Shown: piece after piece, positions 3,660-62,662 of the stretch | Position numbering within the stretch: position 1 is the first letter of the stretch | How the letters are laid out: the number at the start of each line of letters is the position of its first letter | Assembly: GCA_963705505.1 (NCBI GenBank) | Contig: CAVPJU010000010.1 | Span: 96,001 to 160,000, forward strand | Direction of reading: 5' to 3' | Source of the DNA: an uncultured bacterium | GTDB lineage: Bacteria; Desulfobacterota_D; UBA1144; Nemesobacterales; UBA2774 | Length of the DNA: 64,000 nt | Program-made: the position numbers and the translations under genes | Notes under the pieces: generated by a model | What the model saw: only the letters and a program-made list of their open reading frames with translations | What the model was told of the DNA's origin: nothing | The model's database searches: none

Positions 3660-3755
3660 GATGAGATCCTCCTTGTCCGCATCGGTTTGGGTTTTATTTT
3701 AATCGATATGAGCGGCGTTGAAAACGCGGAAGACGTATTTTGTGATAATTCCGCA

Positions 3756-4361
3756 TCATTTTCCCGTTTTTTTATCCGGGAGAGGGACGGGTTTGGGGAC
3801 AGCGTTTTTCACCGGGGTTATCGTCATAAGGTAGGCGAATATAGCTTTAAGGTCTTCGTCACTGAGCTTCCCGTAATCCTGCCAGGGCATCGGCGGGAGC
3901 ACGTCCCTTTTGAAGTCTATATGCTTCCCGGTCCTCATCGTCTCTATGAATACCTGCTCCGTCCACTTCCCTATACCGGTCTCGGGGTCGGGCGTAATGT
4001 TTTTTGAGAATGTGAGCCCCCACGGGCCCGCCCATTCCGTCGAGTCGAGCGTGCCCAGGAACTCTATCCACTCCCCGGAGCCGACCTCGGCGTCCGGCAA
4101 ACGGGGGATCTCCGCGTCCTGGGGGTGGCCAGAGAGCCGCCTCTTCATATCGGGCACGGGGCCTTCTTTGGTCTCGATTAGCGGCGTGTGGCAGTAATCG
4201 CAGTTCCCTTCGGTGACGAGCTGCTTTCCCCTCTCCGCGTATTTGTTCCCCGCGGAGTACGCATCTTTTTCACCCGCTCCCGTCCGCAGGCATGTGATTA
4301 TGAAAAGGCACAACGTGGCCGAAATAACGGTCTTAATCATTGTCTTCATGCGGTTATCCAT
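3756..4361 (-). CDS. Exported c-type cytochrome (single CxxCH)
   Basis: Signal-like N-terminus, CDYCH heme motif, NITPD..TGIG-W and PPMPW (distal Met) motifs. Confidence 0.85.
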   Translation of the reverse strand: MDNRMKTMIKTVISATLCLFIITCLRTGAGEKDAYSAGNKYAERGKQLVTEGNCDYCHTPLIETKEGPVPDMKRRLSGHPQDAEIPRLPDAEVGSGEWIEFLGTLDSTEWAGPWGLTFSKNITPDPETGIGKWTEQVFIETMRTGKHIDFKRDVLPPMPWQDYGKLSDEDLKAIFAYLMTITPVKNAVPKPVPLPDKKTGK

Positions 4362-4364
4362 ATC

Positions 4365-6139: not shown

Positions 6140-6206
6140 GGTGGCCTCCTCGTATTTTTCAGTCGGAGCGGGAGCCGCGCTTATGGCGACCCCGCCCCGG
6201 CGCCTG

Positions 6207-6662
6207 TTACTTTATATCGACCTTGATCTCTTTCGCCTTCGATTCGGCCGCCTTGGGGAGGTGGACTTCAAGTATTCCGTCCTTGAATTCAGCCGATATC
6301 TTGCTCTCCACGACCTTAGCTGGAAGGGTCAACGACCGGGAAAAGCTGCCGTACGACCTCTCGGAATAATAGTAGTCCTCTTCCTTGACCTCCTCTTCCT
6401 TCTTCACTTCCCCCTTGATCGTAAGCGTATTGTCCGATACCGAGATCTTTATGTTCTTCTTGTCTATCCCCGGCACCTCCGCCTTGACAACTATCTCGTC
6501 TGCCTTGTCGAACATATCGACAGCAGGGGAAACCGCCTCGAATTCAGTCATCCATTTAAACCTTGGGAATCTCCTTAAAAACCTCGACGGAAAATTTTCT
6601 TCGAACATATCCTCGAAGAACTTCTCCATACTCTTTGTCGGTTCCCATCTTTTTAGCGCCAT
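6207..6662 (-). CDS. Small heat-shock protein (Hsp20/alpha-crystallin)
   Basis: PAVDM..AEVPG, ERSYGSFSRSLTLP, AEFKDGILEV motifs; GGAGG RBS. Confidence 0.96.
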   Translation of the reverse strand: MALKRWEPTKSMEKFFEDMFEENFPSRFLRRFPRFKWMTEFEAVSPAVDMFDKADEIVVKAEVPGIDKKNIKISVSDNTLTIKGEVKKEEEVKEEDYYYSERSYGSFSRSLTLPAKVVESKISAEFKDGILEVHLPKAAESKAKEIKVDIK

Positions 6663-6706
6663 GATTCTGCCCTCCTGATAGTTGGATTTATATTAAATAA
6701 TTATAA

Positions 6707-6721
6707 TCAAGTTCCATGCCG
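6707..6721 (-). promoter_or_regulatory. Possible variant sigma54 promoter upstream of hsp20
   Basis: Minus strand CGGCATGGAACTTGA: GG-N10-GA, correct spacing but -12 GA instead of GC. Confidence 0.4.
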
Positions 6722-6965
6722 TAAAAAGAACTATAGAATGTTTAGGGCACAATTGCGCGTATAATTTGAATTACGGCTATAATAATTGATGTCCGTTGTA
6801 TGATAATATGACAGAAATGGCGGCATATACATTCAGCGAGCGCTCCGGGTCATTGTCCCGGAGAGAAGCGAAAAACACCCGGGCGGGCCGCCACAATTTA
6901 TAATCCGGGGAGACTCGTACGGGCCTTGCATATTACGAAAGAATTGTATATTTCCGGGTGAATAA

Positions 6966-8087
6966 ATGAACAGAAAGTACATATTGATCCTCCTCTCCGC
7001 TGCTGTTATAGCCGTCCTCGCTTACCTCTTTCTCGTTAATAACAAGAACGGGCCTGCGGAAAACGCGAAGGTCGAGAAAAAGAGATACATCAAGTCCGTA
7101 TATGCTTCGGGCTACGTGGACAGCGTCAACAAGGTGCAGATAAAGCCCGAGGTGTCGGGGTATATAGATCATATTTACGTCAAGGAAGGGGACAAGGTAA
7201 AAAAGGGCGAGGTAATCGCCACTATTAAAAACGACAAACTGAAAGAGCAGCTCAGGGAAATATCCGCGAAAAGGGAGCTCACCGAGAGCAGAATGAAAGA
7301 AGACTCACCCTTCCTCAAGGCTCTCAAGGACGAAATAGGCATATGGAAGATGAATACGGAGATCGAGAGGAGGAACTTCGAGAGGAGGGAGTCCCTTTTC
7401 AAGAAGGGGATAATTTCGAAGGAATCGTTCGACCAGGCAAAGCAGAGCCTCGAGGTGACCGAAAAGACGTACACAAAATCGCTTGAGAGCTTAAACGACC
7501 AGCTCGCGTCCCTTAAGTCCGAGCTCAACTCCCTCACTGCGTCCGAGCAGGCAGTCGTGCGCGAGATGGAAAAGCACGAGATCAAGTCCCCTGTCGACGG
7601 CGAGATTCTCAGGAAGTTCGCGGAGGAAGGGGATTACGTCAACAGCGTGCTCAAGGAAGATGTCATGTTCTCGATCGGCAACCCCGGAGAGCTTGAGACC
7701 GACCTTCTGGTCGATGAGGAATATATTCCGCTCATAAAACCCGGCCAGAAGGTGCTCATAACGACTGACGCCTACCCGGACAAGGTTTTCGAAGGAAAAA
7801 TCAGGGTCATAGAGAGGGAATCCGACAGGGTCTCCCGGACCGTGAAGGTCAAAGCCGATACCGACTATCCCCCCGACATACCCGTCGGCATAACGGTCGA
7901 GGCCAATATCATAGTGACCGACAGGGACGGGCTATTCATATCCAAAGAAGCCTACAAGGACGGGTATATCGAGGTCGTAAAGGACGGGAAGACGGTCAGG
8001 GTTCCCGTTGAGACCGGCGTCGAAGAAGACAGCTACATAGAAATCAAGGACGGGGTCACTGAGCAGAAGGAGATTCCGACCCGTTGA
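6966..8087 (+). CDS. Efflux membrane fusion protein (MacA/HlyD-like)
   Basis: N-terminal TM anchor, VSGYI..VKEGDKVKKG lipoyl half-motifs, coiled coil, IKSPVDG. Confidence 0.9.
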   Translation: MNRKYILILLSAAVIAVLAYLFLVNNKNGPAENAKVEKKRYIKSVYASGYVDSVNKVQIKPEVSGYIDHIYVKEGDKVKKGEVIATIKNDKLKEQLREISAKRELTESRMKEDSPFLKALKDEIGIWKMNTEIERRNFERRESLFKKGIISKESFDQAKQSLEVTEKTYTKSLESLNDQLASLKSELNSLTASEQAVVREMEKHEIKSPVDGEILRKFAEEGDYVNSVLKEDVMFSIGNPGELETDLLVDEEYIPLIKPGQKVLITTDAYPDKVFEGKIRVIERESDRVSRTVKVKADTDYPPDIPVGITVEANIIVTDRDGLFISKEAYKDGYIEVVKDGKTVRVPVETGVEEDSYIEIKDGVTEQKEIPTR

Positions 8088-9337
8088 GATCCATCCTGTT
8101 CATCGCGTTAAAGCTCCTCACCGAAAGGAAAAGGCAGGCTTTCGTCTCGATTGTCGGCGTTGCCATCGGTGTGGCTGCTTTCATAGCGATGAGCTCCGTT
8201 ATGAACGGCTTCCAGATCTACTTCATAAAGCAGGCGGTCGATATAAACGCCCATATCACTCTCAAGGTCGAGGAATCGGATGATCCCGACAGGATACTAA
8301 AAGAGGCCTACGGCGATAATATCGTTGCAGAGGTGCTCGGCTCCAAACCCAAAGACCTGAAGGATAAGATCACAGGCTACAAGCATTTCATAGACAAATA
8401 CGAAAAGGACGACAGGGTGCTCGGCATAGCGCCCCACCTCACGGGGCAGGCAATAATCAATTACGGCACGAAGGAAAAGAGCGCGACACTTATAGGCATC
8501 GACCCCGTTCTCGAGAGGAACGCGTCTGTCGTGGACAATTACATCGAGTTCGGGAACCTGGACAAGATAGTGACCGACAGGAACAGCATCGTTATAGGGA
8601 AGCTCCTCGCGAGGGACCTCGGTATTAAGGAAACCGGGAAGAAAGTGACCCTCGTTTCGCCGAGCGGAGGCATCTATACGCTAAAGGTCGTCGATTTCTT
8701 TAACTCGGGAATAACCAGCATCGACCAGTCGAGGGTTTATATGAACCTCCGCACCCTGCAGGCGATACTCGATAAACCGAATCAGGTGAACGAGCTCATA
8801 ATCAAGGTAAAGGACGTCGATCAGGCGGAGAGCCTCGCGAGCGAGATGTCGGAGGATACGGGGTATTACGCGGAGAGCTGGCAGAGGGCTTTCAGCAACT
8901 TCCTTCAGATATTTAAAATGCAGAACTGGATAACGTACATGATGGTATTCGCAATCCTTATCGTCTCCGCGTTCGGTATCTTCAACATCATGATGATGAC
9001 CGTGCTCGAGAAAAAGAGAGATATAGCGATCCTGAAGGCGATAGGATACGAGGACGGGGAGATAACGAGGATCTTCGTGTTCCAGGGACTCCTCGTGGGA
9101 CTTATCGGCGCGCTCATCGGGTGTCTCCTCGGGTATCTCATTGAGGTATGGCTCGCGTCGCTAAAGTTCGATCTGGTGGGCATAATCAGGGCGAGCGGGT
9201 TCGTTCTCGACAGGAGGCCGCGTTATTTCGTGCTCGGCTTCATATTCGCGATGATATTCGCGTTCTTCGCCTCATTTTACCCCTCCTGGAGGGCATCCAA
9301 GCTCTTCCCGGTGGACATATTCCGGTCAAGCGTATGA
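8084..9337 (+). CDS. ABC transporter permease (LolC/E / MacB-FtsX family)
   Basis: GVAIGVAA N-terminal TM, periplasmic domain, VLEKKRDIAILKAIG motif. Confidence 0.92.
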   Translation: MRSILFIALKLLTERKRQAFVSIVGVAIGVAAFIAMSSVMNGFQIYFIKQAVDINAHITLKVEESDDPDRILKEAYGDNIVAEVLGSKPKDLKDKITGYKHFIDKYEKDDRVLGIAPHLTGQAIINYGTKEKSATLIGIDPVLERNASVVDNYIEFGNLDKIVTDRNSIVIGKLLARDLGIKETGKKVTLVSPSGGIYTLKVVDFFNSGITSIDQSRVYMNLRTLQAILDKPNQVNELIIKVKDVDQAESLASEMSEDTGYYAESWQRAFSNFLQIFKMQNWITYMMVFAILIVSAFGIFNIMMMTVLEKKRDIAILKAIGYEDGEITRIFVFQGLLVGLIGALIGCLLGYLIEVWLASLKFDLVGIIRASGFVLDRRPRYFVLGFIFAMIFAFFASFYPSWRASKLFPVDIFRSSV

Positions 9338-9996
9338 GCGTAATCCTCGAAGGCAGGGACATAAAGAAGTCCATAGGCGAGAGCGCGATACTGAATGGAA
9401 TATCGATCAGTATCGCGAAAGGGGACTTCGTCAGCATCGTAGGGGCTTCGGGCTCGGGCAAGAGCTCTCTCATGTACATACTGGGGCTCCTGGACGCGCC
9501 GACATCAGGGGATGTCATCATAGACGAAAAAAAGATCGATTTCGGCGACGCCAAGCTGCTCTCGCGAATAAGGAACAGGAAGATAGGGTTCGTGTTCCAG
9601 TTCCATTACCTCATTACCGAGCTCACCGCTTATGAAAACATACTCATACCCATGCTGAAGAACGGCGCAAACGACGGGGGCCTCGCGAAGGAGAAGTGTT
9701 ATAATCTCATCGAGAGCCTCGGGCTCAAGGGCAAAGAGGACAGGAAGCCCTATCAGATGTCGGGCGGGGAGCAGCAGAGGGTGGCGATCGCGAGGGCGCT
9801 CGCGAACGACCCCGAAATAATCATGGCCGACGAGCCCACGGGCAACCTCGACTCCAAGAACTCCGCCGTCGTAATGGACGTGTTCCTGGAGCTAAACGAA
9901 AAGGGGAGGGCTATACTCATGATCACGCACGAAATGCACCTCGCCAAACTGACTAAAAAAATATTGGAAATAAAAGACGGTCTTATGGTGAGCTGA
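9334..9996 (+). CDS. ABC transporter ATP-binding protein (LolD/MacB-like)
   Basis: GASGSGKS Walker A, IGFVFQFHYL, MSGGEQQRVAIARAL, DEPTGNLD; ATG overlaps the permease stop. Confidence 0.95.
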   Translation: MSVILEGRDIKKSIGESAILNGISISIAKGDFVSIVGASGSGKSSLMYILGLLDAPTSGDVIIDEKKIDFGDAKLLSRIRNRKIGFVFQFHYLITELTAYENILIPMLKNGANDGGLAKEKCYNLIESLGLKGKEDRKPYQMSGGEQQRVAIARALANDPEIIMADEPTGNLDSKNSAVVMDVFLELNEKGRAILMITHEMHLAKLTKKILEIKDGLMVS

Positions 9997-17501: not shown

Positions 17502-18329
17502 TCACACCACCATGCGGGGGTAAAGGCGGGCTGCAAGTAAAACCAGAGCTGCGAAGATCACGGCCAGGATGCCGAAATCGAACGCAAGCCCGAATTCCGG
17601 CTTTACGCCCTGTATCATAAGCGATCTCAGGGCATCGACTTGATAAGTAAGCGGATTGAACGATGAAACGGTGCGCAGCCATCCGGGCATAAGCGAGATC
17701 GGATATATGGCGTTGCTCGCGAAGAAGACCGGCATTGTGATGAGCTGACCTATCCCCATGAACCGCTCGCGCGTCTTGACGAGGCAGGCGATAATCAGCG
17801 ACAGGGTAGAAAAAAGTCCGCACCCGAGCGAAATCAGAACGACGACGCCGAGAATATGAAGAGTGACGAAGCTGAGGTCTGCGCCCATTAGCCCGGCTAC
17901 GGCGTAAACTATAGCGCCCTGAAGGAGTCCCCGCACGCTTGCGGCAAGGGCCTTGCCGATTACGATGGCTGTACGCGGCGCGGGACTGACCAGCATCCGG
18001 TGAAGAATGCCCAGATCGCGGTCCCAGATGGCGGATATACCGAAGAAAATGGCGACGAACAGAACGCTTTGCGCGAGTATGCCTGCCGAGAGATAGTCGA
18101 CGTAGCTTATGTTGCCCGGAGACAGCCCCCGGACCCGCGCCATGACCTCTCCGAAAAGCAGCAGCCAGAGGAGCGGCTGCACGGCGCGCGACACAAGCTC
18201 TATCGGGTCGTGCCTGACCTTCTGAAGCTCCGCGCTCAGGACGCCCAGGACCTGCATGCAGTAATCGGCTGCCATCCCGGGGATTTTAGCTGCGGGATGC
18301 AATAGACCTGCGGTTTCGGCGTACTTCAC
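17502..18329 (-). CDS. ABC-2 type exporter permease (DrrB-like)
   Basis: QPLLWLLLFG, DRDLGILHRMLVSP, PVFFASNAIYP, NPLTYQVDALR. Confidence 0.9.
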   Translation of the reverse strand: MKYAETAGLLHPAAKIPGMAADYCMQVLGVLSAELQKVRHDPIELVSRAVQPLLWLLLFGEVMARVRGLSPGNISYVDYLSAGILAQSVLFVAIFFGISAIWDRDLGILHRMLVSPAPRTAIVIGKALAASVRGLLQGAIVYAVAGLMGADLSFVTLHILGVVVLISLGCGLFSTLSLIIACLVKTRERFMGIGQLITMPVFFASNAIYPISLMPGWLRTVSSFNPLTYQVDALRSLMIQGVKPEFGLAFDFGILAVIFAALVLLAARLYPRMVV

Positions 18330-19102
18330 GATAACCTCCTTCCTGCTGTTCGTCTGTCGTTTCTATGAGCCCGGAAAAAACATCGTCGAGTGTGGCATCC
18401 GCCCCCAGCCCGGCCTTCAGCTCGGACGGGGTGCCTGTGGCGATTATCTTACCTTTGTGGAGGAGAGCCATGCGGTCGGCGAGCTCTTCGACCTCCTCCA
18501 TATAATGTGTCGTCAGGATGATCGTCATCTGATGCTCTTCTCTCAGCGCCTGCACGTGCTCCCACACAGCCTTGCGGGCGACCGGGTCGAGCCCGACCGT
18601 CGGCTCGTCCATAAAGATGACGGAAGGCTGATGCAGCATGCTCTGCGCGATTTCAAGCCGCCGTATCATGCCGCCCGAATAGCTCTGTACGAGATCGTCG
18701 GCTTCTTCAGTAAGCTCCATGAATTCCAGAGCTTCTTTGATGCGCCCTGACTGCTCCGCACGCGGAATGGCGTAAAGCCGCGCCGAAAGAAGGAGGTTCT
18801 CCCGTCCCGTGAGCGCGCCGTCGGATGACAGGAGCTGCGGAATGTAGCCGATGCTCCGGCGCACATCCGTCGCCTGCCTGACGATATCGTAGCCCGCAAC
18901 CCTGGCCGTACCCGAGGCGGGGGGCAGCAGTGTCGTCAGCATCTTGATGATTGTGCTCTTGCCGGCGCCGTTCGGGCCTATGAGGGCAAAAATCTCCCCC
19001 GCGTCAACAGTGAAGGACACGGAGTCAACGGCTGTGAATTCGCCGAAAGTTTTGCTCAGGTTTTCAACATATAACAGCAGACTCTTTAACGTAGCTCAAC
19101 AT
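18286..19102 (-). CDS. ABC exporter ATPase (DrrA-like); true start probably ATG 19102 with a +1 frameshift ~19070
   Basis: GPNGAGKS, YSGGMIRRLEIA, DEPTVGLDP; the upstream VENLSKTFGEFTAVDSVSF region connects to ATG 19102 after removing one base. Confidence 0.9.
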
Positions 19103-19298
19103 TAATAAGATTACCCTATATACCAGTTATGAGAGAGAATTTTGTTAAATGGATGCAGGTGAATTGCTCAATCCGTAAAAGGAGCATCGTTCGCCCGTCA
19201 ACTCCGGGTTGAAGGAGAATGCCAAAATAACGCGTATCGATACATATAATGTGGTGAAGCTCGATGAATTGACTGATGTGGGCCCGGAAGGTGTTTGC

Positions 19299-19748
19299 TC
19301 AGCTAACCCGGCAGTCTTTGCAGACGCCGTTTAGGAGTATGGAGTAGCCTTTGATGTGGTAGTCGCCGAGGGTCTTGTCCGAGACGTCGAGCGTCGAAAG
19401 CGACTCGTCGTATATGTCCTCGACCTTCTTGCATTCGATGCACACGATGTGGTTATGGGGTGAGAGGTTCGCGTCGTAGCGAGCGGCGTTATAGAGCACG
19501 TTCACAACCGAAATCAGCCTCAGCTTCTCGAATGTTTCTAAAGTCCTGTAAACGGTAGTGAGCGAGATATTGGGGTAATAGTCCTTGATCTTCTTATAAA
19601 TAGTTTCAGTGCTCGGGTGCTGGTCGGTGGATGCAAGCTCCTTGTATATGGCTACCCTTTGCGGAGTAACCTTTATGCCGAGCTCCTTGCTCCGTTCAAT
19701 GAACTCATGAACCCTTTCCTTTATCATCTCTTCGGTGATAAAACTCAT
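19299..19748 (-). CDS. Fur/PerR-family transcriptional regulator
   Basis: TPQRVAI, HPSTE, ISLTTVYRTL, HNHIVCIEC and CKDC motifs. Confidence 0.92.
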   Translation of the reverse strand: MSFITEEMIKERVHEFIERSKELGIKVTPQRVAIYKELASTDQHPSTETIYKKIKDYYPNISLTTVYRTLETFEKLRLISVVNVLYNAARYDANLSPHNHIVCIECKKVEDIYDESLSTLDVSDKTLGDYHIKGYSILLNGVCKDCRVS

Positions 19749-19885
19749 TCTACACTCCCTGCTGAGATAATATTACACAATAAAAATAAAATATCCAGAG
19801 ATATAAATCAATAACGTATGGTGATTAATGGATAAATTTTACGGATTTCATGCCGCTCGGCACGGCCACTTGCATCTAATCGCCT

Positions 19886-20539
19886 GTGTCTGTTAAGGTA
19901 ATCCCTGTGAAGAGTCTCGAAGCCATCAGGAAGAATAAGATATTCGCCGTCATACGTGCGGAGAACACGGAATCCGCGCTCGAGTTCGCCGAGGGGTGCA
20001 TACGCGGCGGACTAAGGCTCATCGAGATCACGTTTTCCTTCCCGGGTGCGGAGGAAGCGATATCGGCGCTCAGCGGAAGGCTGGGCGTGCTCGTCGGGGC
20101 GGGAACTGTGATCGACATGGGAATGGCCGAGAGGGCATTGAAAGCCGGAGCCGCGTTCCTCGTGTCTCCCCATACCGACAAAGACCTCATCGGTTTCGCG
20201 AAAGAAAACGGAGTTGCATCGATACAGGGCGCCTTCACGTCCTCCGAGATAGTGAACGCGTGGAAGCTTGGCGTGGACATGGTGAAGATATTCCCCGTGA
20301 GCTCGGTCGGGGGGCCGTCTTACGTAAGGGCGATAAAGGAGCCTCTCCCTTTCGTCGATATAATGACGACCGGAGGGGTCAGCCTCGATAACTTCATCGA
20401 GTTTATAAATTCCGGCGCCTCGGCAGTCGGAGTTTCGAGCGCGCTCCTCGGGAGCGGAAAGAAGATCGACCCCGACGTGATCGAGGAAAACGCGGAAAAA
20501 TTCGTCAGCAGGCTCCGCGAAATTGAAAAAGGTGAATGA
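19886..20539 (+). CDS. eda: KDPG/KHG aldolase
   Basis: AVIRA, IEITF, VGAGTV, FLVSP, VKIFP, TGGV. Confidence 0.9.
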   Translation: MSVKVIPVKSLEAIRKNKIFAVIRAENTESALEFAEGCIRGGLRLIEITFSFPGAEEAISALSGRLGVLVGAGTVIDMGMAERALKAGAAFLVSPHTDKDLIGFAKENGVASIQGAFTSSEIVNAWKLGVDMVKIFPVSSVGGPSYVRAIKEPLPFVDIMTTGGVSLDNFIEFINSGASAVGVSSALLGSGKKIDPDVIEENAEKFVSRLREIEKGE

Positions 20540-52620: not shown

Positions 52621-53070
52621 ATGGAGAAGGTAGTCTGCACACATCCCAGAGCCAAGAGGGATTACGACATTGAGGAGAATTACGAGGCCGGCATCGAGCT
52701 CAAGGGCTCCGAGGTAAAATCACTTCGCGAAAATCAGGCGAGCATAAAGGAGAGCTTCGCCATGATAAGGGACGAGGAGGTCTTCCTCGTCAACAGCTAC
52801 ATAGCCCCTTACGAGGCTGCGAACATATTCAACCACGACCCGCGCAGGGAAAGGAAGCTCCTCCTGAACAAACGGGAGATCAGCCGGCTCATGGGCAAGA
52901 CCCTGATAAGGGGATACACGCTCATCCCCTTGAAGATTTATTTCAAGCGGGGGAAGGCGAAGGTCGATCTGGCGCTCGGGAAGGGTAAGAAGGTCCACGA
53001 TAAAAGGGACGACATTAAGAAGAGAGAGGCGGACAGGGAGATGGAGAAGGCTATGAAGAGGCGTTACTGA
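52621..53070 (+). CDS. smpB: SsrA-binding protein
   Basis: EAGIELKGSEVKSLR, RERKLLL, GKGKKVHDKR. Confidence 0.98.
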   Translation: MEKVVCTHPRAKRDYDIEENYEAGIELKGSEVKSLRENQASIKESFAMIRDEEVFLVNSYIAPYEAANIFNHDPRRERKLLLNKREISRLMGKTLIRGYTLIPLKIYFKRGKAKVDLALGKGKKVHDKRDDIKKREADREMEKAMKRRY

Positions 53071-53206: not shown

Positions 53207-53562
<356 letters not shown>

Positions 53563-53992: not shown

Positions 53993-54025
53993 TGAAACGC
54001 GTTAAACAGTTTCAATCATGGCTTC

Positions 54026-54527
54026 TTACAAAGTCTTTACAAAAGCGACCAGCTGATCGAGGGCTGTACCCCATCCTTCGTGAAATCCTCTTTCCTCGTG
54101 GACCTTGCGGCTTTCCTCGTTGGGGTGAAGCGCGATAGCCGTATACTTCGTCCCGTCTTCGTGCGACTCCAGTATAATTATCGCGGTGAAGAAGCTGTCT
54201 ATACAGTCGTTCGGCTGATTCGGACGGCCGATAGCCTTGCTCGAGCGCGTCGGTCCAGACGAGCTTTTCGTTCTCGACGACTTCCAGGTAACAGCCGGTA
54301 TTAGGATGATCCACACCTTCAGGCGAGCGCATAACCGTGCGGAATACCCCGCCCGGGCGCAGATCGATCTCACACTCTACTGTCATCCACGGTACGGGCG
54401 TAAACCATTTCATCAAGTACTCGGGCGTTGTCCAAGCCTTCCAGACGAGCTCTCTCGGCACATCGACTATTCGCTCGAGAACGAGGTCGAGCCGGGGATC
54501 GGGTTTATATTTTGTACGTGTCATCAC
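54026..54527 (-). CDS. SRPBCC/AHSA1-like protein (+1 frameshift ~54221)
   Basis: [28 protein letters not shown]-terminal [13 protein letters not shown] in the next frame. Confidence 0.9.
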
Positions 54528-54859
54528 TTTTTCTCCTTTAGTTCCTTTAGGTAATTGTCCAATTGATCCAGCCGCAGCTCCCAAAGCACGCGCCGCTTCT
54601 CTATCCAGTTCTCCGCAGCTTTAAGCGGCCCGGGCGTCAGCCGATATGTGCGTATCCGTCCCTTTTTTTGCGAGCGGACTAACCCGCACTCCTCCAGAAC
54701 ACCCAGATGCTGGATGAAAGAGGGTAACGCCATATCGAATGGGCGTGCCAGCTCGCTCACCGGAGCCGGGCCGTCGCTCAGCCGCGTTAAAACGGCACGG
54801 CGTGTAGGATCGGATAAAGCGTGAAAAACTCGGTCGAGCTGAACAGTATTGTTAGGCAT
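54524..54859 (-). CDS. ArsR/SmtB-family transcriptional regulator
   Basis: [40 protein letters not shown]. Confidence 0.93.
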
Positions 54860-54896
54860 ACACCTAACTATAAATCAGAGCTGATACTTATGTCAA
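54851..54896 (-). promoter_or_regulatory. arsR promoter and operator palindrome
   Basis: Minus strand TTGACA-N18-TATAGT ending 7 nt before the ATG; GTTAGG-N6-CCTAAC palindrome overlaps the start codon. Confidence 0.6.
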
Positions 54897-54930
54897 TGCC
54901 TAAGTTATTTTTGAAGCTCCAGGGAGAGGA

Positions 54931-55123
54931 CGACGGCTCCTTAAACCCCGCTCGCGGGTTTAAATGAGGCGACATCAAAGCGGGCTGGTCTCCGGGCGAC
55001 GCACTGAACGCCTGAGGACGAGAAAACATTCGGAGCTGGCGGTGAAAACCCTGTCTATCGGTAACTTCACTGCGAGAACTAATGATAGACTAAGCATGTA
55101 GAGGCCTTGTGAGTCTCTTTCTC
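54931..55123 (+). repeat. 193-bp internal duplicate of ssrA (copy of 53338-53530)
   Basis: Alignment by eye shows one mismatch (CCC vs CTC); lacks both tRNA-like ends and the tag ORF. Confidence 0.95.
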
Positions 55124-55239
55124 TTGACAACAGTCTTTTTTACTGAAGAATCATCAGGAAACCACGCGTTAACACCCATGAACGTTCTTACAAAAGCATT
55201 TAATCCGCCAGTACGGTATAACCTGCCGAAAACTTTGTC

Positions 55240-55449
55240 ATGCAATAATCCAAACTTAAAAACAGCTAAAAGCTTGAAGAAAACCCGTCGGGATAACGGC
55301 ATCTCGCCAGACGGCCTGTCCATACCGCCGGATTCGCCGCTTAATACCGTCGTTACTGTGGAATCCGGCGCAAATTCGGATACAACTATTGAAACCCTTC
55401 ACAAATCGCAAAAGCGTTTGATGTCGGCGTTGATGATTTAATCAAATAA
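55240..55449 (+). pseudogene. Decayed XRE/Cro-family HTH regulator
   Basis: TAKSLKKTRRDNGISPDGLS...LNTVVTVESG....TIETL, then IAKAFDVGVDDLIK* in another frame; Pro substitutions in the HTH helices. Confidence 0.7.
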
Positions 55450-55453
55450 GAAT

Positions 55454-55993
55454 ATGTTCAGACTTTATTACAAAATTTTTTCGACTCCGAAGACGGTCAT
55501 AGATGTTCGGTCGTTGCGGTGCGATGCGGACATTAACATCATAGGGAAAAAACTTGAAGCCATAGTACAGCGGTCATTTCGCGGCTCGCTCGCGATCCGG
55601 GCCGTCGATGCCGGATCGACCAACGCGTGCGAGCAGGAGCTTACCGCGCTTGGCAACTCCTATTACGACATCGAAAGGTTCGGCATCCGTTTTGTGGCTT
55701 CCCCAAGGCATGCGGACATGCTGATGGTTACAGGCCCCGTTACCAGAAACATGAAAGAAGCGCTCGTAAGGACATACGAAGCCGTTCCTGATCCGAAAAT
55801 TGTCGTGGCACTTGGCAATGACGCGATAGACGGAGGCATTTTTAAGGGTTCTTACGGAGTCTTGGACGGAGTGCACAATGTCATTCCCGTGGATTTCCAA
55901 ATTCCCGGAGACCCGCCGTCTCCGAGAATAATACTTTGCGGCTTGCTGCAAATCCTTGAAATGCTTGATTCTCGCGCCAAGGCTGCTCAATAA
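55454..55993 (+). CDS. NuoB/HyfI-like small subunit of an Ehr/Hyf-like complex, lacking 3 of 4 Fe-S cysteines
   Basis: DAGSTNACE, ASPRHAD, VTGPVT, ALGNDA, IPGDPP (canonical GSCNGCE / GxCA / PGCPP). Confidence 0.9.
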   Translation: MFRLYYKIFSTPKTVIDVRSLRCDADINIIGKKLEAIVQRSFRGSLAIRAVDAGSTNACEQELTALGNSYYDIERFGIRFVASPRHADMLMVTGPVTRNMKEALVRTYEAVPDPKIVVALGNDAIDGGIFKGSYGVLDGVHNVIPVDFQIPGDPPSPRIILCGLLQILEMLDSRAKAAQ

Positions 55994-55995
55994 AT

Positions 55996-58041
55996 ATGTT
56001 TAGCACGCTCATTTCATCAAATATATTTTTTCTGTCACTCCTCTTATGGATAGCAGGGGCGGTCGGGGCTTTGGTTTTGAGCAAAAATGACCGCTTGGCA
56101 AACTGGTGGGGAAATTCTTTTGCGATTCTCGGATCCTGCGTTGGATTATCGTTTTCTCTGTCGGTGCTGATTCTCGGCTCCACATTTTCTTTTAACATCG
56201 ACTCCACTCTGCCTCTTCTGTCGTTATCTTTCAGCGTGGATAAATTATCCGCTTTTTTCATTTTCGTTATTTCGCTCATCGCTTTATTTGCTTCCATTTA
56301 TGCACTGGGATACGTAAAGCATTATTACAAAAAATATAATATCGGCGCGCTCGGCTTTTTTTATAATACTTTCCTGGCCGGAATGGTCATGGTCGTCAGC
56401 GCCCACAACGCCCTTTTCTTTCTCGTCGTCTGGGAAATAATGTCTCTCGCCTCGTATTTCCTTGTCATTTATGAAAACAAGGAAAAAGAAAATGTGCAAG
56501 CGGGATCGCTTTATTTCATTATGACCCACGTCGGAACGGCCTTCATAACGCTGGCTTTTTTACTCTTGTACCTTGCTACCGGGTCTTTAGACTTCGGCGT
56601 AATAAAAGAAACTATCGGAAACAGCTCGCCGCTCATAACCAATACGGTTTTCGTTCTTGCGCTTATAGGGTTTGGGACCAAAGCGGGCATTATCCCTTTT
56701 CACATCTGGCTGCCGAACGCTCATCCCGCCGCCCCGTCTCATGTTTCCGCCCTGATGTCAGGTGTGATGATCAAGACAGGCATCTATATGTTTATCCGGA
56801 TGTTCATGGATATACTGCCGGACGCGCCGCTCTGGTGGGGAGTCGTTATTTTGATACTGGGCGCTATATCATCGCTGTTAGGGGTTTTGTATGCTCTCAC
56901 CGAACACGATATCAAAAGACTTCTGGCTTACAGCAGCATCGAGAATATCGGGATTATTTTGTTGGGACTCGGCAGCTCCCTTGTGTTTTGGTCGCTGGAT
57001 ATGAAGCCGCTGGCCGTCCTTAGCCTGGTAGCGGCGCTTTTTCATACTCTCAATCATGCGATATTCAAAGCATTATTATTCCTGGGAGCCGGTTCCGTTA
57101 TTTCCCAAACCCATACCAGAAATATGGAAGAATACGGCGGCTTGATAAAATATATGCCGCAAACTGCGCTTTTCTTTCTTGCCGGCTCGATGGCGATATC
57201 GGCACTGCCTCCTTTGAACGGTTTTTTCAGCGAGTGGATGACGTTTCAGTCTCTTTTTAGCGGGATCATGGCATCGAGTATCTCGGTGCGCTGGGTATTT
57301 TTGTTGGCGGCGGGATCGCTTGCGTTTACCGGAGGGCTTGCGGCAATGTGTTTCGTGAGAGCGTTCGGAATTACATTCCTGGCCAGACCGAGAAGCGAGC
57401 ACGTCAGGCACGCCCGAGAGTCCGGTTTTGCGCTTCGCATAGGCATGGCTGTCCTCGCGGCTCTCACTTTAATCATAGGATTTACCGCCGGCAGCATCAC
57501 AAATACGGTATCAGGTGTTGTGAGCGATTTGAGCGTCTTTAATTCTTCCGAACCGGCATTTTTTTCGAATATGTATACGGTCGGACTGCGCAGCGGCTTT
57601 GCTTCAATTTCAATGCCGCTTATCCTGGCAAGTTTTATCGTAACTATGGCATTGACGTTTTTTGCCGTGTATCTCGCCTCGCGCAACAGAAAAACGAAGA
57701 TCGGCCGCACCTGGGATTGCGGAACAACTCTTGGCCCGAGGATGGAAATCACCGGTACGGGTTTCTCCCACTCTATCGTTACTATTTTCCGCGGGGCGCT
57801 CAAGCCGACTAAGCAAACGAGCATCGAGTATCGGGATGAAGATATGCGCTATTTTCAAAAATCAAGCACGGTCGAGCTTGGCATTCAGGATATTTACAAC
57901 AGATATTTTTATCAGCCGGTGCATATGATAACCATCAAAGCTTCCGAGTATGTGAAAAGAATCCAGAGCGGCAATATCAATCTGTACGTACTGTACATAT
58001 TGGCGATACTCATTGCCCTTCTGTTCGCTTCGGGTATGTAG
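55996..58041 (+). CDS. HyfB/NuoL-like antiporter-type membrane subunit
   Basis: WEIMSLAS, KAGIIPFHIWLP.AHPAAPSHVSALMSG, KRLLAYSSIEN, WDCG. Confidence 0.92.
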   Translation: MFSTLISSNIFFLSLLLWIAGAVGALVLSKNDRLANWWGNSFAILGSCVGLSFSLSVLILGSTFSFNIDSTLPLLSLSFSVDKLSAFFIFVISLIALFASIYALGYVKHYYKKYNIGALGFFYNTFLAGMVMVVSAHNALFFLVVWEIMSLASYFLVIYENKEKENVQAGSLYFIMTHVGTAFITLAFLLLYLATGSLDFGVIKETIGNSSPLITNTVFVLALIGFGTKAGIIPFHIWLPNAHPAAPSHVSALMSGVMIKTGIYMFIRMFMDILPDAPLWWGVVILILGAISSLLGVLYALTEHDIKRLLAYSSIENIGIILLGLGSSLVFWSLDMKPLAVLSLVAALFHTLNHAIFKALLFLGAGSVISQTHTRNMEEYGGLIKYMPQTALFFLAGSMAISALPPLNGFFSEWMTFQSLFSGIMASSISVRWVFLLAAGSLAFTGGLAAMCFVRAFGITFLARPRSEHVRHARESGFALRIGMAVLAALTLIIGFTAGSITNTVSGVVSDLSVFNSSEPAFFSNMYTVGLRSGFASISMPLILASFIVTMALTFFAVYLASRNRKTKIGRTWDCGTTLGPRMEITGTGFSHSIVTIFRGALKPTKQTSIEYRDEDMRYFQKSSTVELGIQDIYNRYFYQPVHMITIKASEYVKRIQSGNINLYVLYILAILIALLFASGM

Positions 58042-58048
58042 AAACACT

Positions 58049-58975
58049 ATGTCAATTATAATTTGGACAATTCAATTAGCGCTAGTGCCGGCCGTGTCGC
58101 CTCTGTGTATCGGTGTCGTCAGAAAAATAAAGGCGAGATTTCAAAACAGAGTAGGCGCGAGCATATTTCAGCCCTATAGAGACTTGTGGAAGTTATTCCA
58201 TAAGGATGAGGTGATAAGCGAGGACGCTTCCTGGATTTTCAAATGCGCTCCCTATATTATTTTTTCAACCACAGTGATTATAGGAGCGAGCGTTCCGCTT
58301 TTTACCACAATTTTTTCCATCAATGCCCTCGGCGACCTGCTCGTCGTAATATATTTGATTGCTTTTGGAACTTTCTTTCTCGCACTTGCCGGCATGGATG
58401 TGGGGAGCGCTTTCGGAGGGTTCGGATCAAGCCGGGAAATGACGGTTGCCGCTTTAACTGAGGGCGGTTTGATGTTTTCCATTCTCGTTCCTGCGTTATC
58501 GGCTCATTCCACGAATCTTTTTGCAATCTCGGGTGCCGTCGCTTCGTTTTCGTTTTTTGCTTTTGCCCCGATGATTCTCGCGCTTGCCGCGTTCATAATC
58601 GCCATGCTCGCCGAAACGGGGCGCTTCCCCTTCGATAATCCTGCTACACACCTTGAACTTACGATGATCCACGAGGCAATGGTTTTGGAATATTCGGGAA
58701 AGAGACTGGCGCTTATCGAATGGGCGGCGGCAAATAAGTTCTTTATCTTCCTCGCATTGGGGGCAAATCTTTTCTTCCCCTGGGGGATGTCGTCATCGGA
58801 GCGTCTCGGGGATGTTCCGCTTGCCTTGATCTTGTTTTTTGCAAAAATTCTGGCGTTTAGCGTATTCGTTGCTGTCCTGGAGTCCACTATCGTCAAATTC
58901 CGGTTTTTCAGACTGCCGGATTTATTATTCACATCGTTTATTTTAAGCATCATTGCTATGAGTTTGACTATCTAA
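58049..58975 (+). CDS. HyfC/NuoH-like membrane subunit
   Basis: RVGASIFQPYRDLWKL, GSSRE, ETGRFPFD, ELTMIHEAMVLEYSG. Confidence 0.92.
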   Translation: MSIIIWTIQLALVPAVSPLCIGVVRKIKARFQNRVGASIFQPYRDLWKLFHKDEVISEDASWIFKCAPYIIFSTTVIIGASVPLFTTIFSINALGDLLVVIYLIAFGTFFLALAGMDVGSAFGGFGSSREMTVAALTEGGLMFSILVPALSAHSTNLFAISGAVASFSFFAFAPMILALAAFIIAMLAETGRFPFDNPATHLELTMIHEAMVLEYSGKRLALIEWAAANKFFIFLALGANLFFPWGMSSSERLGDVPLALILFFAKILAFSVFVAVLESTIVKFRFFRLPDLLFTSFILSIIAMSLTI

Positions 58976-58979
58976 TACC

Positions 58980-59639
58980 ATGATTCCTATTACGCCGCAA
59001 ATATTATTCTTTCTCGAGACGATGCTGTTCGCATCGGTCGTATTTATGCACATCGCCAAGAAAAATTCAGGGGTAATATTTCTTTATGCGGCACAGTCTT
59101 TGATCATAGCCATCGCCTTGTTCTATTCGTCCCTCACCGAGTACTCATTGTTGCTTGTGGTGGTGGCTGTAGCGACTTTTTTGGTCAAAGTGATAATCGT
59201 TCCGTATTTCTTTTCCGGGCTCATTAAAAAACACCGGCTGCAATTTTCCGTCAGCACTTATTTGAATACCCCTATGACGCTGATCGTCCTGGCGTTATTA
59301 ACCGCGTTTTCCTACTCGCATTTTTTCGGGCCGTTAACTATTCTCGCCCCGGATAAGGAAAACGCCTTATCGCTCGCCATAGCGATGGTGCTCATATCAA
59401 TATTTTTAATTATTAACCGCAAAGGGGCTCTGTCTCAGATGGTCGGTATTTTGTCATTGGAAAATGCCATCGTTTCATTCGCGTACGTTGCCGGGCTTGA
59501 GACAACTGCCGGGCTGCAAGTAGGCATCCTGTTCGATATTTTTATCTGGGTCGTGATCGCGACCGTTTTTGCGTCAATGATATACCGGCACTTCGGCTCG
59601 CTTAATGTGAGCATACTGAAACATTTAAAAGAGGAATAA
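58980..59639 (+). CDS. HyfE-like membrane subunit
   Basis: Hydrophobic; SQMVGILSLENAI, GILFD motifs. Confidence 0.88.
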   Translation: MIPITPQILFFLETMLFASVVFMHIAKKNSGVIFLYAAQSLIIAIALFYSSLTEYSLLLVVVAVATFLVKVIIVPYFFSGLIKKHRLQFSVSTYLNTPMTLIVLALLTAFSYSHFFGPLTILAPDKENALSLAIAMVLISIFLIINRKGALSQMVGILSLENAIVSFAYVAGLETTAGLQVGILFDIFIWVVIATVFASMIYRHFGSLNVSILKHLKEE

Positions 59640-59643
59640 CTAT

Positions 59644-61089
59644 TTGGCCTTATTTTTAATTATCATCATTCCGCTTGTAGGCTCCCTCGCATCTTTTTTT
59701 GTGAAGAAAGATGTGCGGGTGTTGAGCTTTATCGCTGTCTCCGCCTCTTTCCTGGAATTGATAGCGACAATGGTAACGGTCGCCTCGGTTATGGATAGCG
59801 GATTATATCGTTTAAACGGCTATTTTTCGGTCGACGCGCTCGGGGCCGTCATAATCACACTGGTCGCGGTCATAGGCGCCATGGCGTCGTGGTACTCGAC
59901 CGGCTATCTGAAACTTGAGGTGGCGAAAAGAATCATAGGATTCAGCAGGGTACGGCAGTATTTTATTCTGTTGCACTTATTTCTCCTGGCGATGTTTTTC
60001 GCCGTTATGTCCACGAGCCCCATTTTGACCTGGATTGCGATTGAAGCGACCACGCTCTCTACAGCGTTCCTTATCAGCTTCTATAACAAACCGTCGGCGA
60101 TAGAAGCAGCCTGGAAATATTTGATGATTAATTCGGTCGGACTGTTGCTGGGATTCTTCGGCACCTTTCTTTTCCTCTACCCGTCCATACATGCCGGTCT
60201 TCCGGGATTGATCAGCTGGCATGACATGTTATCCAATGCTTCTGCGCTCGATCCGTTTATAGCCAAGATGGCTTTCATTTTTATTTTAATCGGGTACGGC
60301 ACAAAGGTCGGCTTGGTTCCCATGCATACATGGCTGCCGGATGCCCACAGTAAAGCTCCGGCACCGATCAGCAGCCTGCTTTCGGGCGTATTGCTTAATG
60401 TCGCTTTTCTGGCGCTTTTACGGTTCAAATCCGTCGTTGATGTTGCGATAGGTCCGCATTTTTCCCGGGAGCTGCTCGTATTTTTCGGCGTTATCTCGAT
60501 CTCCGTCGCGGCTTTGATCATTTTTAGTCAAAGAAACTATAAACGGCTGCTGGCGTATTCCAGTATCGAGCATATGGGGGTTATAGCCTTAGGGTTCGGG
60601 TTCGGAGGCGCGGGGGCGTTCGCGGCTCTGCTTCATATGATCTATCACGCGCTGACAAAATCGGTTCTATTTTTATCGGCGGGCAATATATTAGTGAAAT
60701 ACGGTTCCACAAAAATAAGAAACGTGAAAGGCGTTCTGACGGTCCTGCCTGTGACCGGCGTCCTGTTTTTCATCGGATTTTTGGCAATCACCGGCGTTCC
60801 TCCGTTCGGGACATTTATAACCGAATTTTCGATATTGTCGGCGGGCATTAAGACGCATCCGACAACGGTGATTATTACCTTATCGGTGCTGGCCCTGGTA
60901 TTTGTCGGTTTTTTGCGGCATGTCGTCTCGATCACGTTTGGAAACAGCGATATTCCCATGGCAAAGGGCGAGAGCGGATTGGATACAATTGTTCCCATTA
61001 TGCTTCTGGCCGCTCTTTTAATCATTGTCAGCTTTTTCATCCCGGAGAGTATGCGGTCGTTGTTACATTCAGCGACAATAAATTACTGA
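59644..61089 (+). CDS. HyfF/NuoM-like antiporter-type membrane subunit
   Basis: WIAIEATTL, EAAWKY, GTKVGLVPMHTWLPDAHS, KRLLAYSSIEHMG. Confidence 0.92.
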   Translation: MALFLIIIIPLVGSLASFFVKKDVRVLSFIAVSASFLELIATMVTVASVMDSGLYRLNGYFSVDALGAVIITLVAVIGAMASWYSTGYLKLEVAKRIIGFSRVRQYFILLHLFLLAMFFAVMSTSPILTWIAIEATTLSTAFLISFYNKPSAIEAAWKYLMINSVGLLLGFFGTFLFLYPSIHAGLPGLISWHDMLSNASALDPFIAKMAFIFILIGYGTKVGLVPMHTWLPDAHSKAPAPISSLLSGVLLNVAFLALLRFKSVVDVAIGPHFSRELLVFFGVISISVAALIIFSQRNYKRLLAYSSIEHMGVIALGFGFGGAGAFAALLHMIYHALTKSVLFLSAGNILVKYGSTKIRNVKGVLTVLPVTGVLFFIGFLAITGVPPFGTFITEFSILSAGIKTHPTTVIITLSVLALVFVGFLRHVVSITFGNSDIPMAKGESGLDTIVPIMLLAALLIIVSFFIPESMRSLLHSATINY

Positions 61090-61093
61090 TACC

Positions 61094-62662
61094 ATGAAAC
61101 GAGAAATAATAGAAAATTATATTCCCGCTAAATTTGAGATAAGAATAGAGGGCAATGTCGTCGCCTATGATGTTCCCGTCGACGAAATATCCGTGATCGC
61201 TAACCAGCTCTATTTTGCTCACACGTTACAGCTCAAAACGATAACCGCGGCTGACGAACGTAACGAAGGCGGAGGTTTCAAGATCTACTACGTGTTTGGG
61301 GTACCTAAGGAGAATATTTTTCTCGTCCCCTACATAACCCTGACGGATCAGGAAAAGTTTCCTTCGATCACCAAAGCCATTCACGAGGCTTCCGGCTACG
61401 AAAGGAAGATCGAGAGCTTTTTCGGTTTAAAGCCGGCAAATCACCCCCATCCGCGACCGGTCATTCTTCACGAAAATTGGCCTGATACCGTTTTCCCGCT
61501 GAGAAAAGATTTTAACTGGCGGGACCGGCCGCCGGAGGCGCACGGATCGTATGAATTCCATAAGGTTGAAGGAAAAGGAATTTACGAAATTCCCGTAGGG
61601 CCCGTGCACGCCGGCATCATTGAGCCCGGGCACTTCCGATTCAACGTCGTCGGAGAGGAAATAGTGTCGCTCGAGCCGAAGCTGGGATATACACACAAAG
61701 GCGCCGAAAAACTCTTCGAGGTTTTAACGATGGAAGACAAGATCAGATTATCCGAGAGGGTTTCGGGAGATACTTCGTTCACTCATTCGCTGGCATTTTG
61801 TCAGGCCGTGGAAAGCCTGTCCGGCATTAAAATTCCTGAGAGGGCAAAGTATCTGAGAGTTGTTTTTTCCGAGTTGGAGAGACTGGCAAACCACTTGAAC
61901 GATATCGGTCTCATTATGCTGGACGCCGGCTATAATTTCGGCGGCAGCAACGGCGCTCGTCTTCGCGAAATCATTATGCAATGCTGTGAGCGTCTTGCCG
62001 GAAACCGTTTCTTACGGGGCATAAATACGATCGGCGGGGTAACGCGGGATATCACAAGCGAGATGAGCGCGGGACTCTTAAGCGACCTAAACAAAGTACA
62101 CCGGGATTTTAACGAAGTGATCGAAATCGCCGAAAGCAGCTTTTCTCTCTCGAACCGTCTTTCGGGTACCGGCAAGCTTGACCGTCAGATAGCCTTTGAC
62201 CACGGGGTTATCGGCGTAGCCGGCAGGGCAACAGGTATCGCGCACGATGCACGCATTGAATACCCCTACGCGGCGTACGACAAATTAAAATTTGAGATCG
62301 TCCTGGAAGATGAAGGGGACGTTCGGGCCAGATGGTCCGTGCGTGTCAAGGAAGTGCATTCTTCCATGAATATTATAGAGCAGGCGCTCCGGACTATTCC
62401 TTTGAACGAAGAATTAAAATCCGGCGAAAAAATGGTATTGAGGAGTCATAGCTACGGCGTCGGAGTGGCGGAAGGATGGCGGGGCGATATCGTTTATTTT
62501 GTAGCGACGGATGCAGCCGGTGAGATAAGCAGGGTAGATGTGCGCGACCCCTCATTCATAAACTGGACTGTATTGGGTCACGCGGGGAAGGGGAATGTGG
62601 TGCCCGATTTCCCCCTGATTAATAAAAGCTTCAATTTGTCGTATTCCGGAAATGATTTATAA
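61094..62662 (+). CDS. HyfG/HycE-like (NuoC+NuoD fusion) large subunit without NiFe-binding cysteines (Ehr-type)
   Basis: GPVHAGIIEPGHFRF, ELERLANHL, EGWRG, RDPSF; L1 reads ERVSGDTS and L2 reads SFNLSYSGNDL. Confidence 0.92.
   Translation: MKREIIENYIPAKFEIRIEGNVVAYDVPVDEISVIANQLYFAHTLQLKTITAADERNEGGGFKIYYVFGVPKENIFLVPYITLTDQEKFPSITKAIHEASGYERKIESFFGLKPANHPHPRPVILHENWPDTVFPLRKDFNWRDRPPEAHGSYEFHKVEGKGIYEIPVGPVHAGIIEPGHFRFNVVGEEIVSLEPKLGYTHKGAEKLFEVLTMEDKIRLSERVSGDTSFTHSLAFCQAVESLSGIKIPERAKYLRVVFSELERLANHLNDIGLIMLDAGYNFGGSNGARLREIIMQCCERLAGNRFLRGINTIGGVTRDITSEMSAGLLSDLNKVHRDFNEVIEIAESSFSLSNRLSGTGKLDRQIAFDHGVIGVAGRATGIAHDARIEYPYAAYDKLKFEIVLEDEGDVRARWSVRVKEVHSSMNIIEQALRTIPLNEELKSGEKMVLRSHSYGVGVAEGWRGDIVYFVATDAAGEISRVDVRDPSFINWTVLGHAGKGNVVPDFPLINKSFNLSYSGNDL

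Follow-up and report, generated by a model that had tools for sequence, protein, structure and literature searches.

The stretch analysed here (the window) comprises 64,000 nucleotides (nt) of the genome of an uncultured bacterium of the phylum Desulfobacterota_D (contig CAVPJU010000010.1, assembly GCA_963705505.1) and carries, at positions 55454-62662, a six-gene operon for a membrane complex resembling complex I. The operon can be assigned to the Ehr (energy-converting-hydrogenase-related) family, as a cofactor-free member of the clade typical of the Candidate Phyla Radiation (CPR, Patescibacteria). The complex has neither a complete Ni-Fe site nor a complete [4Fe-4S] site, and we infer that it is best read as a redox-free ion translocator. 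Coordinates are positions in the window and residue numbers refer to the subunits encoded there.

The six open reading frames (ORFs) are contiguous on the + strand in the order S-A-B-C-D-L, with no stop codon and no frameshift. The gene identities were obtained from scans with Pfam and NCBIfam profiles, and individual residues were placed with phmmer against all solved chains. The subunit set of the Ehr family is present: a small, a large, a NuoH-like, a HyfE-like and two antiporter-like subunits. The alignment of the small subunit EhrS to HycG (7z0s_G) and MbhJ (6cfw_J) showed that T56, C59, D123 and D153 fall on the four [4Fe-4S] cysteines of these proteins, with N122 adjoining the D123 ligand column. 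The corresponding codons are ACC (55619), TGC (55628), GAC (55820) and GAC (55910), and each of the three replaced ones is two bases away from TGC or TGT. In the large subunit EhrL, residues S224, T227, S516 and G519 occupy the columns of the four Ni-Fe cysteines (two CxxC pairs) of HycE (7z0s_E). A preliminary description of this DNA had reported an intact six-gene operon, an EhrS that keeps one of four cluster ligands, replaced codons two bases from a cysteine codon and an EhrL without Ni-binding CxxC motifs; our ORFs and family assignments agree with it, and the alignments to solved chains bear out both statements on the ligands, as the codons at 55619, 55820 and 55910 do the remaining one.

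The replacements in EhrS are not read errors, because the 120 closest database homologues share them and an independent metagenome contig spans the operon. These homologues are 69-96% identical, and the sequence relatives number thousands. Among 121 rows (the window and the 120 homologues), T56 was found in 114, C59 in 118, D123 in all 121 and D153 in 120. The metagenome contig matches the operon over its full length and differs from it by 311 substitutions but by no indel. Among the 40 differences listed, of 600 in the aligned contigs, none falls in the four EhrS ligand codons. The ratio of nonsynonymous to synonymous substitutions (dN/dS; Nei-Gojobori, against two relatives) was 0.06-0.19 for each gene, and all six ehr genes are under purifying selection.

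The complex cannot be a [NiFe] hydrogenase, because other residues stand in place of all four Ni-Fe ligands and neither a Hyp maturation gene nor a ferredoxin subunit could be found. The family scans revealed no NuoI/HyfH-like ferredoxin (4Fe-4S dicluster protein) among the six genes and their neighbours and no maturation genes in or beside the operon; searches across the genome (2.88 Mb, 93.6% complete) gave neither HypD nor a true [NiFe] large subunit. The marks of group 4 [NiFe] hydrogenases (Hyf/Hyc/Mbh/Ech), namely the CxxC motifs, four small-subunit cysteines, Hyp proteins and a ferredoxin-like subunit, are thus missing. The preliminary description had noted the lack of the ferredoxin and of maturation genes, dismissed read errors and excluded a hydrogenase, and it proved right in all of these respects.

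A scan of species-representative genomes yielded 76 ehr loci. The order S-A-B-C-D-L was found in 66 of them: 65 loci of the window's clade and the divergent Acidobacteriota locus L071, in which no C gene was detected. Most of the 66 belong to CPR/Patescibacteria, and further labels are Dadabacteria, Lentisphaerae, Scalindua, Thermoleophilia, Syntrophales and Bdellovibrionales. Nine small subunits represent a second, classical type, eight of them from loci with the order A-B-C-D-L-S (order given where flanks were available) and one from a second cluster in locus L013; these loci are labelled Proteobacteria, Acidobacteriota, Planctomycetota and Lentisphaerae. All four cluster cysteines are present in nine of nine, which accords with the earlier statement that Ehr complexes normally keep the NuoB-type cysteines. 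In a quick maximum likelihood (ML) tree of 57 L sequences, the 49 cluster-less ones form one group (SH-aLRT 96) apart from the four-Cys type, and because they do, the loss of the small-subunit cluster is old and probably single. Among the best 150 representatives at 50% identity, about 25 sequence clusters are without the cysteines and have varied polar or acidic replacements; the rest are of the four-Cys type.

The residues at the former ligand positions were counted in 61 small subunits of the clade. Position 56 is T in 25, D in 24 and S in 12; position 59 is C in 38, E in 15, A in 5, V in 2 and P in 1; position 122 is D in 54 and N in 7; position 123 is D in 46, G in 13, E in 1 and A in 1; and position 153 is D in 57 and N in 4. 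Because of these counts, the T/C/D/D combination of the window marks only a subclade. The question raised by the preliminary description, whether it defines a conserved clade, is therefore answered positively for the subclade and negatively for the whole clade, in which C59 and D123 vary. The one cysteine that the window keeps is thus variable in the family, and a conserved mononuclear Cys/Asp/Asp metal site, such as had been suggested, is not supported. The only constant features are D153 (D/N), D/N122 and an oxygen donor at position 56 (T/D/S). Two to four Asp/Glu residues are found among positions 56, 59, 122, 123 and 153 in 47 of 47 rows; the acidity of the former cluster pocket is a constant feature of the clade. 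A carboxylate stands at 59 or 123 in 46 of the 47 rows, but for compensation between these two positions there are only two independent pairs on supported branches.

The fraction of invariant residues is highest in the subunits that build the chamber (S 27%, B 21%, L 19%), followed by A (17%) and D (12%), and lowest in EhrC (4%). In EhrL, S224 (48/49 sequences), D226 (49/49), S/T227 (49/49), H231 (47/49), S516 (48/48), G519 (47/48) and D521 (47/48) are conserved, and the loop P167-F183 is invariant. The loop of EhrB between transmembrane helices (TM) 5 and 6, E201..R204.P206.D208...E215..E221..E226, is invariant in 52 sequences. Likewise, E147, K229, K260, K358 and E413 of EhrA are invariant in 49 sequences and E134, K221 and K339 of EhrD are invariant, whereas at position 394 of the latter 25 of 47 sequences have E and 22 have K; judging by known motifs, we take these charged residues to lie on TM5/7/8/11/12. 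The parts of the complex that serve transport and coupling are preserved intact and evolve under constraint. The EhrL motifs SGD[ST]..H and NLSY[SA]G.DL are common to the clade, with conservation in 47-49 of 49 members, and the nine Ehr loci with four-Cys small subunits. Because both Ehr types have them, the large-subunit site is a feature of the family, and the small-subunit cluster alone separates the two types.

The genomic context of the 66 S-A-B-C-D-L loci was also compared. In 21 of the 66, genes for the F1Fo ATP synthase are found no more than 5 kb away; of the 53 loci in which the upstream sequence extends for at least 2 kb, 14 have such genes on that side and on the same strand. The operon stands between atpG and atpD in L042 and L051, with gaps of 6-28 bp and atp identities at equivalog level, and its distance from a preceding atpC or atpG is 6-35 bp in L031, L049 and L056. 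Seven loci have a carbonic-anhydrase-type gene at 88-919 bp from the operon, and three unrelated classes are represented: a CsoSCA-like gene in L015, L057, L062 and L064 (PF20686, E 3.4e-10 and 3.1e-07), a gamma-class gene in L018 (CcmM-type, E 4e-54) and L013 (E 1.5e-48), and DabA (PF10070, E 1e-218) on the opposite strand in L017 of Scalindua, where a SulP-family gene is situated 368 bp upstream. The gene order in L015 and L018 is atp, ehr, carbonic anhydrase. The arrangements vary between loci, and the three classes of carbonic anhydrase are not homologous to one another. Among the genes flanking the operon in the 66 loci there is no conserved redox partner. A Na+-type ATPase beside ehr was considered and rejected: four c-subunits in CPR loci carry E-A and not Q...E-S/T, which we take to be the Na+ motif, and thus give no sign of Na+ coupling.

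We give about an even chance to a mechanism in which the complex would be an ion-motive machine without electron transfer. H+ and/or Na+ would pass through the antiporter-like subunits A and D and the NuoH-like subunit B. The old redox chamber, located where S, L and B meet, contains two to four carboxylates contributed by S and an invariant set of Ser, Asp, His and Tyr contributed by L; it would serve as a gating site that binds protons or cations, and this binding would replace redox chemistry as the conformational trigger. The driving force would be an ion gradient, provided by the F1Fo ATPase in the CPR relatives or by the respiratory chain in the window's host. The output would be cation/proton exchange or, where a carbonic anhydrase is encoded nearby, gradient-coupled CO2/bicarbonate chemistry. 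A wider proposal, which we put forward tentatively and hold to be doubtful, is that the electron wire of a hydrogenase/complex-I ancestor has been rebuilt as a proton or cation wire, with carboxylates at the place of the [4Fe-4S] cluster and the Ser/Asp/His/Tyr set at that of Ni-Fe, that binding in the chamber drives the antiporter-like subunits where reduction once did, that the complex acts as a module of the F1Fo ATPase and in several lineages, with carbonic anhydrase, as a CO2/bicarbonate device, and that the respiring host acquired it from CPR-like bacteria.

Several points weigh against a redox-free ion translocator. The functional reading is drawn from sequence and genomic context. The host has NhaA and two CPA-type Na+/H+ exchangers, which would make a plain antiporter redundant; this is qualified by the result that MnhG (Mrp) was not found in the host genome. 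The peripheral subunits are kept more strongly than the antiporter-like ones, which suggests that the peripheral site carries out chemistry or binds something specifically and does not serve transport alone, and the EhrL motifs common to the four-Cys Ehr may reflect a redox-linked role of this site in the wider family. The linkage to atp and carbonic-anhydrase genes is found in relatives and not in the host genome. Moreover, the neighbour counts given above take in related genomes with synteny by descent, so that the independence of the loci is overstated.

The neighbouring genes of the relatives also suit a different function, an energy-coupled carbonic anhydrase or inorganic-carbon pump, in which the gradient would make CO2 hydration vectorial through a partner protein or a metal site in the chamber. 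DabAB and the cyanobacterial NDH-1 CupA are known energy-coupled CO2-hydration systems, and both the three unrelated carbonic-anhydrase classes and the order seen in L015 and L018 speak for such a pump. However, 59 of the 66 loci have no such neighbour in the available sequence, the DabA of L017 is on the opposite strand, and S has no conserved Zn-type Cys/His ligand set, as C59 varies; a common role in pH homeostasis could also explain the co-location with antiporters. In the host, the family scans detected no DabA, CupA or carbonic-anhydrase gene beside the operon, nor was a CsoSCA-like gene found in the genome, an absence that is weak as this family was silent in the control genomes too. 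The analogy to DAB-type systems drawn in the preliminary description thus receives some support from the relatives and none from the host genome, and we consider the pump unlikely. A further reading is a non-transport role, in which the complex would keep its fold but not pump and would assist the F1Fo ATPase or the membrane in structure, assembly or regulation, for instance by sensing the gradient or the pH. The placement of the operon between atpG and atpD or directly after atpC or atpG is consistent with it, as is the peak of conservation in the peripheral and junction subunits, but a scaffold would not need the invariant antiporter Lys/Glu residues or the NuoH loop, and the host operon is unlinked to atp and yet under purifying selection. 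We judge this role to be quite improbable.

A cryptic redox enzyme, with an unconventional cofactor or a cluster held by Asp/Cys/Thr and with electrons from a dissociable partner such as formate dehydrogenase, has some backing in published work: a complex of formate dehydrogenase and Ehr is proposed for Margulisbacteria and Saganbacteria in the accessible text of PMC6349859, and according to that of PMC7894505 the Ehr subunits of Geobacter were more abundant on formate. The same large-subunit motifs in the four-Cys Ehr and the presence of C59 in nearly all close-homologue rows are also in its favour. Against this, three of the four ligands are lost and the fourth varies within the clade, a NuoI/HycF-type subunit for electron entry is missing, and the 66 loci have no conserved redox partner gene beside the operon; we therefore regard such an enzyme as very unlikely. 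Hardly credible is a decaying hydrogenase relic on its way to loss. All canonical cofactor sites are incomplete and the operon is patchy within the genus, as would be expected of a relic, but the selection and conservation data contradict it: the dN/dS values are low in all six genes, there are no frameshifts or stops, the substitutions are conserved across phyla, and sequence relatives number thousands, the best 120 of them with 69-96% identity. The preliminary description had named mixed residues at the ligand positions together with relaxed selection as the signature of decay and had proposed the dN/dS calculation as a check. Mixed residues were indeed seen at positions 59 and 123; relaxed selection was not, and the operon is maintained.

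With regard to its origin, we conclude that the operon is here a horizontally acquired cassette in a variable region beside the transfer-messenger RNA (tmRNA) gene, because its orthologues are patchy, it nests with CPR and Lentisphaerae sequences, its GC content is low and the ssrA-rph interval is variable. Four of ten genomes of the genus have orthologues (92% identity); the other 110 genomes of the phylum contain none, their matches being NuoB-type proteins with 32-47% identity. The locus is 92% identical to that of a metagenome-assembled genome (MAG) labelled Dadabacteria, to which the host likely belongs as well. In the quick ML tree the window's L belongs, with support 99, to a group of 11 rows that also includes Magasanikbacteria, Moraniibacteriota and Lentisphaerae, and it groups with CPR-type Ehr sequences, apart from other Ehr. 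The GC content of the operon (0.480) is below that of all 97 other 7.2-kb segments (minimum 0.489), and the GC content at third codon positions is 0.53-0.59, while the housekeeping genes nearby have 0.68-0.77. The ssrA-rph interval, where the operon is located, measures 4.3 kb in a genus member without the operon, and the order of ehr and an ArsR/SRPBCC gene pair is inverted in another operon-bearing member; the interval is rearranged and variable among members of the genus. The host has its own complex I, with a separate canonical NuoB/NuoD pair on contig C6, and its atp operon is elsewhere, on contig C3. Its antiporter-like genes besides ehrA and ehrD are three of nuo type only.

The features of the locus are collected in Table 1.

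Table 1. Genes and other features of the ehr locus in the window
Feature	Position	Strand	Basis
tmRNA gene, edge of the variable region	53207..53562	+	ARAGORN; follows smpB (52621-53070)
Copy of an internal tmRNA segment, 193 nt	54931..55123	+	99% identical to 53338-53530
Non-coding leader before ehrS	55124..55453	+	No family; even substitutions over codon positions
EhrS, NuoB/HycG-like small subunit (Oxidored_q6/NuoB), 179 aa	55454..55993	+	Family scans; alignment to 7z0s_G and 6cfw_J
EhrA, HyfB/NuoL-like antiporter-like subunit, 681 aa	55996..58041	+	NCBIfam HyfB equivalog (703 bits, cut-off 667)
EhrB, NuoH/HyfC-like subunit	58013..58975	+	PF00146 (NADHdh/NuoH)
EhrC, HyfE-like small membrane subunit, 219 aa	58980..59639	+	NCBIfam hydrogenase 4 membrane subunit (65 bits, E 8.5e-18, under the cut-off)
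EhrD, HyfF/NuoM/N-like antiporter-like subunit, 481 aa	59644..61089	+	Family scans; alignment to NdhF and MBS chains
EhrL, NuoC-NuoD/HycE-like large subunit, 522 aa	61094..62662	+	Complex1_30kDa and Complex1_49kDa; alignment to 7z0s_E

With its listed start, a TTG at 58013, ehrB shares 29 nt with the end of the gene before it. Translation more probably begins at the ATG at 58049, the codon of M13 in the listed ORF, as the product then has the length of most homologues. According to the family scans, the operon is flanked by the ArsR/SRPBCC pair upstream and by RNase PH (rph) and RdgB downstream. The pair (ArsR/SRPBCC-AHSA1; 54012-54859, - strand) is located downstream of ehr in genus member G077 and directly before rph in the ehr-less G072. 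The copied tmRNA segment gave a partial Rfam match (54887-55103) of 29.8 bits, under the gathering score of 47, and operon-bearing genus members have only a fragment of about 40 nt with 83-88% identity at the corresponding place. The 193-nt copy, a direct repeat placed between the ArsR/SRPBCC pair and the ehr leader, may be a recombination scar at the variable region or an assembly artefact. A 110-codon ORF at 55109-55441 was examined as a seventh gene and rejected: it has no family match, differs from relatives by indels, and shows substitutions at the three codon positions of 14/20/11, 15/18/10 and 13/21/13. Part of the leader upstream of ehrS is missing in L006. The Rfam search of the 870-bp upstream region for known RNAs and riboswitches returned only the sub-threshold tmRNA fragment, and the promoter and terminator scans gave 9 promoter-like sites compared with 11.2 expected from shuffles, i.e., no excess.

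Some of the related loci have further peculiarities. In L017, from a Candidatus Scalindua MAG, Mrp genes (MNHE and two antiporter-like), the SulP permease and DabA flank ehr (400-9633 and 17938-20508 of that locus), and this neighbourhood is a cluster of ion and inorganic-carbon transport genes. In L013, from a Lentisphaerae MAG (L013:3399-17996), a cluster-free S-A-B-C-D-L set stands exactly between the L and the four-Cys S of a second, divergent Ehr cluster, resulting in the order A-B-(C)-D-L, S-A-B-C-D-L, S, and the gamma carbonic anhydrase follows 919 bp downstream. In L053 (17265-17918) and L059 (17264-17998), ehrL is followed after 75-84 bp by a channel gene of the MIP/aquaporin family with the same orientation, and in L021 (17299-18147, - strand; labelled Gammaproteobacteria) an rve-type integrase core gene is located about 100 bp downstream of ehr. 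The ehr genes of L008 and L009 are split into several ORFs over two contigs of one MAG (G076), which has three small-subunit copies and 7% contamination; the broken genes are less likely to be pseudogenes than the result of assembly or long-read errors or of mixed strains.

Ehr complexes have been described before, and the accessible parts of PMC6349859, PMC10284858 and PMC7894505 give their function as unknown. A CPR-specific clade of Ehr large subunits without metal-binding cysteines was published by Jaffe et al. 2020 (PMC7304191). The window's L resembles that clade, as described in the accessible text, in nesting among CPR sequences (support 99) and in having no Ni-Fe cysteines; it differs in its host, which is a non-CPR, respiring bacterium with its own complex I. 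The same text covers the large-subunit cysteines only and mentions neither the small-subunit loss nor atp or carbonic-anhydrase neighbours. The papers searched, taken without the supplements of PMC6349859 and PMC7304191, contain no account of a lost small-subunit cluster, of an ehr operon set among atp genes or of carbonic-anhydrase genes beside it. New here are the non-CPR respiring host with a horizontally acquired operon, the finding that the retained cysteine is not a family trait, and the large-subunit site common to cluster-bearing and cluster-free Ehr. Classical Ehr, e.g., GSU0739-45 of Geobacter sulfurreducens, as far as presented in the accessible text of PMC7894505, has the same six subunit types and L motifs and also no Ni-Fe cysteines, and the window's subunits are 30-63% identical to those of classical Ehr. 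However, the nine classical small subunits sampled have four cysteines and the order of that type is A-B-C-D-L-S, while the window has one cysteine and the order S-A-B-C-D-L. The small-subunit cluster cysteines, a trait of classical Ehr, are used here as a comparison and not as a definition of the family.

Among solved structures, the best matches are in the Escherichia coli formate hydrogenlyase (FHL, 7z0s), with S matching HycG at E 4.6e-31 and L matching HycE at E 1.6e-78. The related hydrogenase-4 (Hyf) of E. coli is also similar: the window's A reaches the HyfB equivalog cut-off, and C and D match HyfE and HyfF. Hyf and FHL possess Ni-Fe and Fe-S ligands, ferredoxin-like subunits (HyfA/H, HycB/F) and Hyp maturation, which the window's operon is without. 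Respiratory complex I (Nuo) has the N2 cluster, NuoI, an NADH-input module and 11-14 subunits, whereas the operon consists of six genes and the cluster ligands are lost. The Mrp antiporter is similar in its MrpA/D-like subunits with conserved Lys/Glu and in the redox-free action proposed here, a likeness of working and not of membership, as Mrp has MrpB/E/F/G and lacks the NuoH-, NuoB- and NuoCD-like subunits of the window. With DabAB and NDH-1 CupA, the related loci share the combination of an antiporter-like subunit and a carbonic-anhydrase-type protein (7 of 66, one of them with DabA). DAB, however, is without the four membrane and two peripheral subunits of the Ehr complex, and the host operon has no dedicated carbonic-anhydrase-type subunit.

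For complex I and its relatives, there is continuing debate on how chemistry in a peripheral chamber is coupled to the movement of ions tens of angstroms from it. A natural, conserved relative in which the chamber, the coupling loops and the channels are intact and no redox site is complete lets this coupling be studied without electron transfer. For annotation, the genes should not carry the names of hydrogenase or NADH dehydrogenase subunits. In bacteria without respiratory chains, such as CPR, the complex may explain how ion gradients are managed together with the ATPase, and its spread into a respiring lineage of soil or groundwater indicates that the module is useful beyond the CPR lifestyle.

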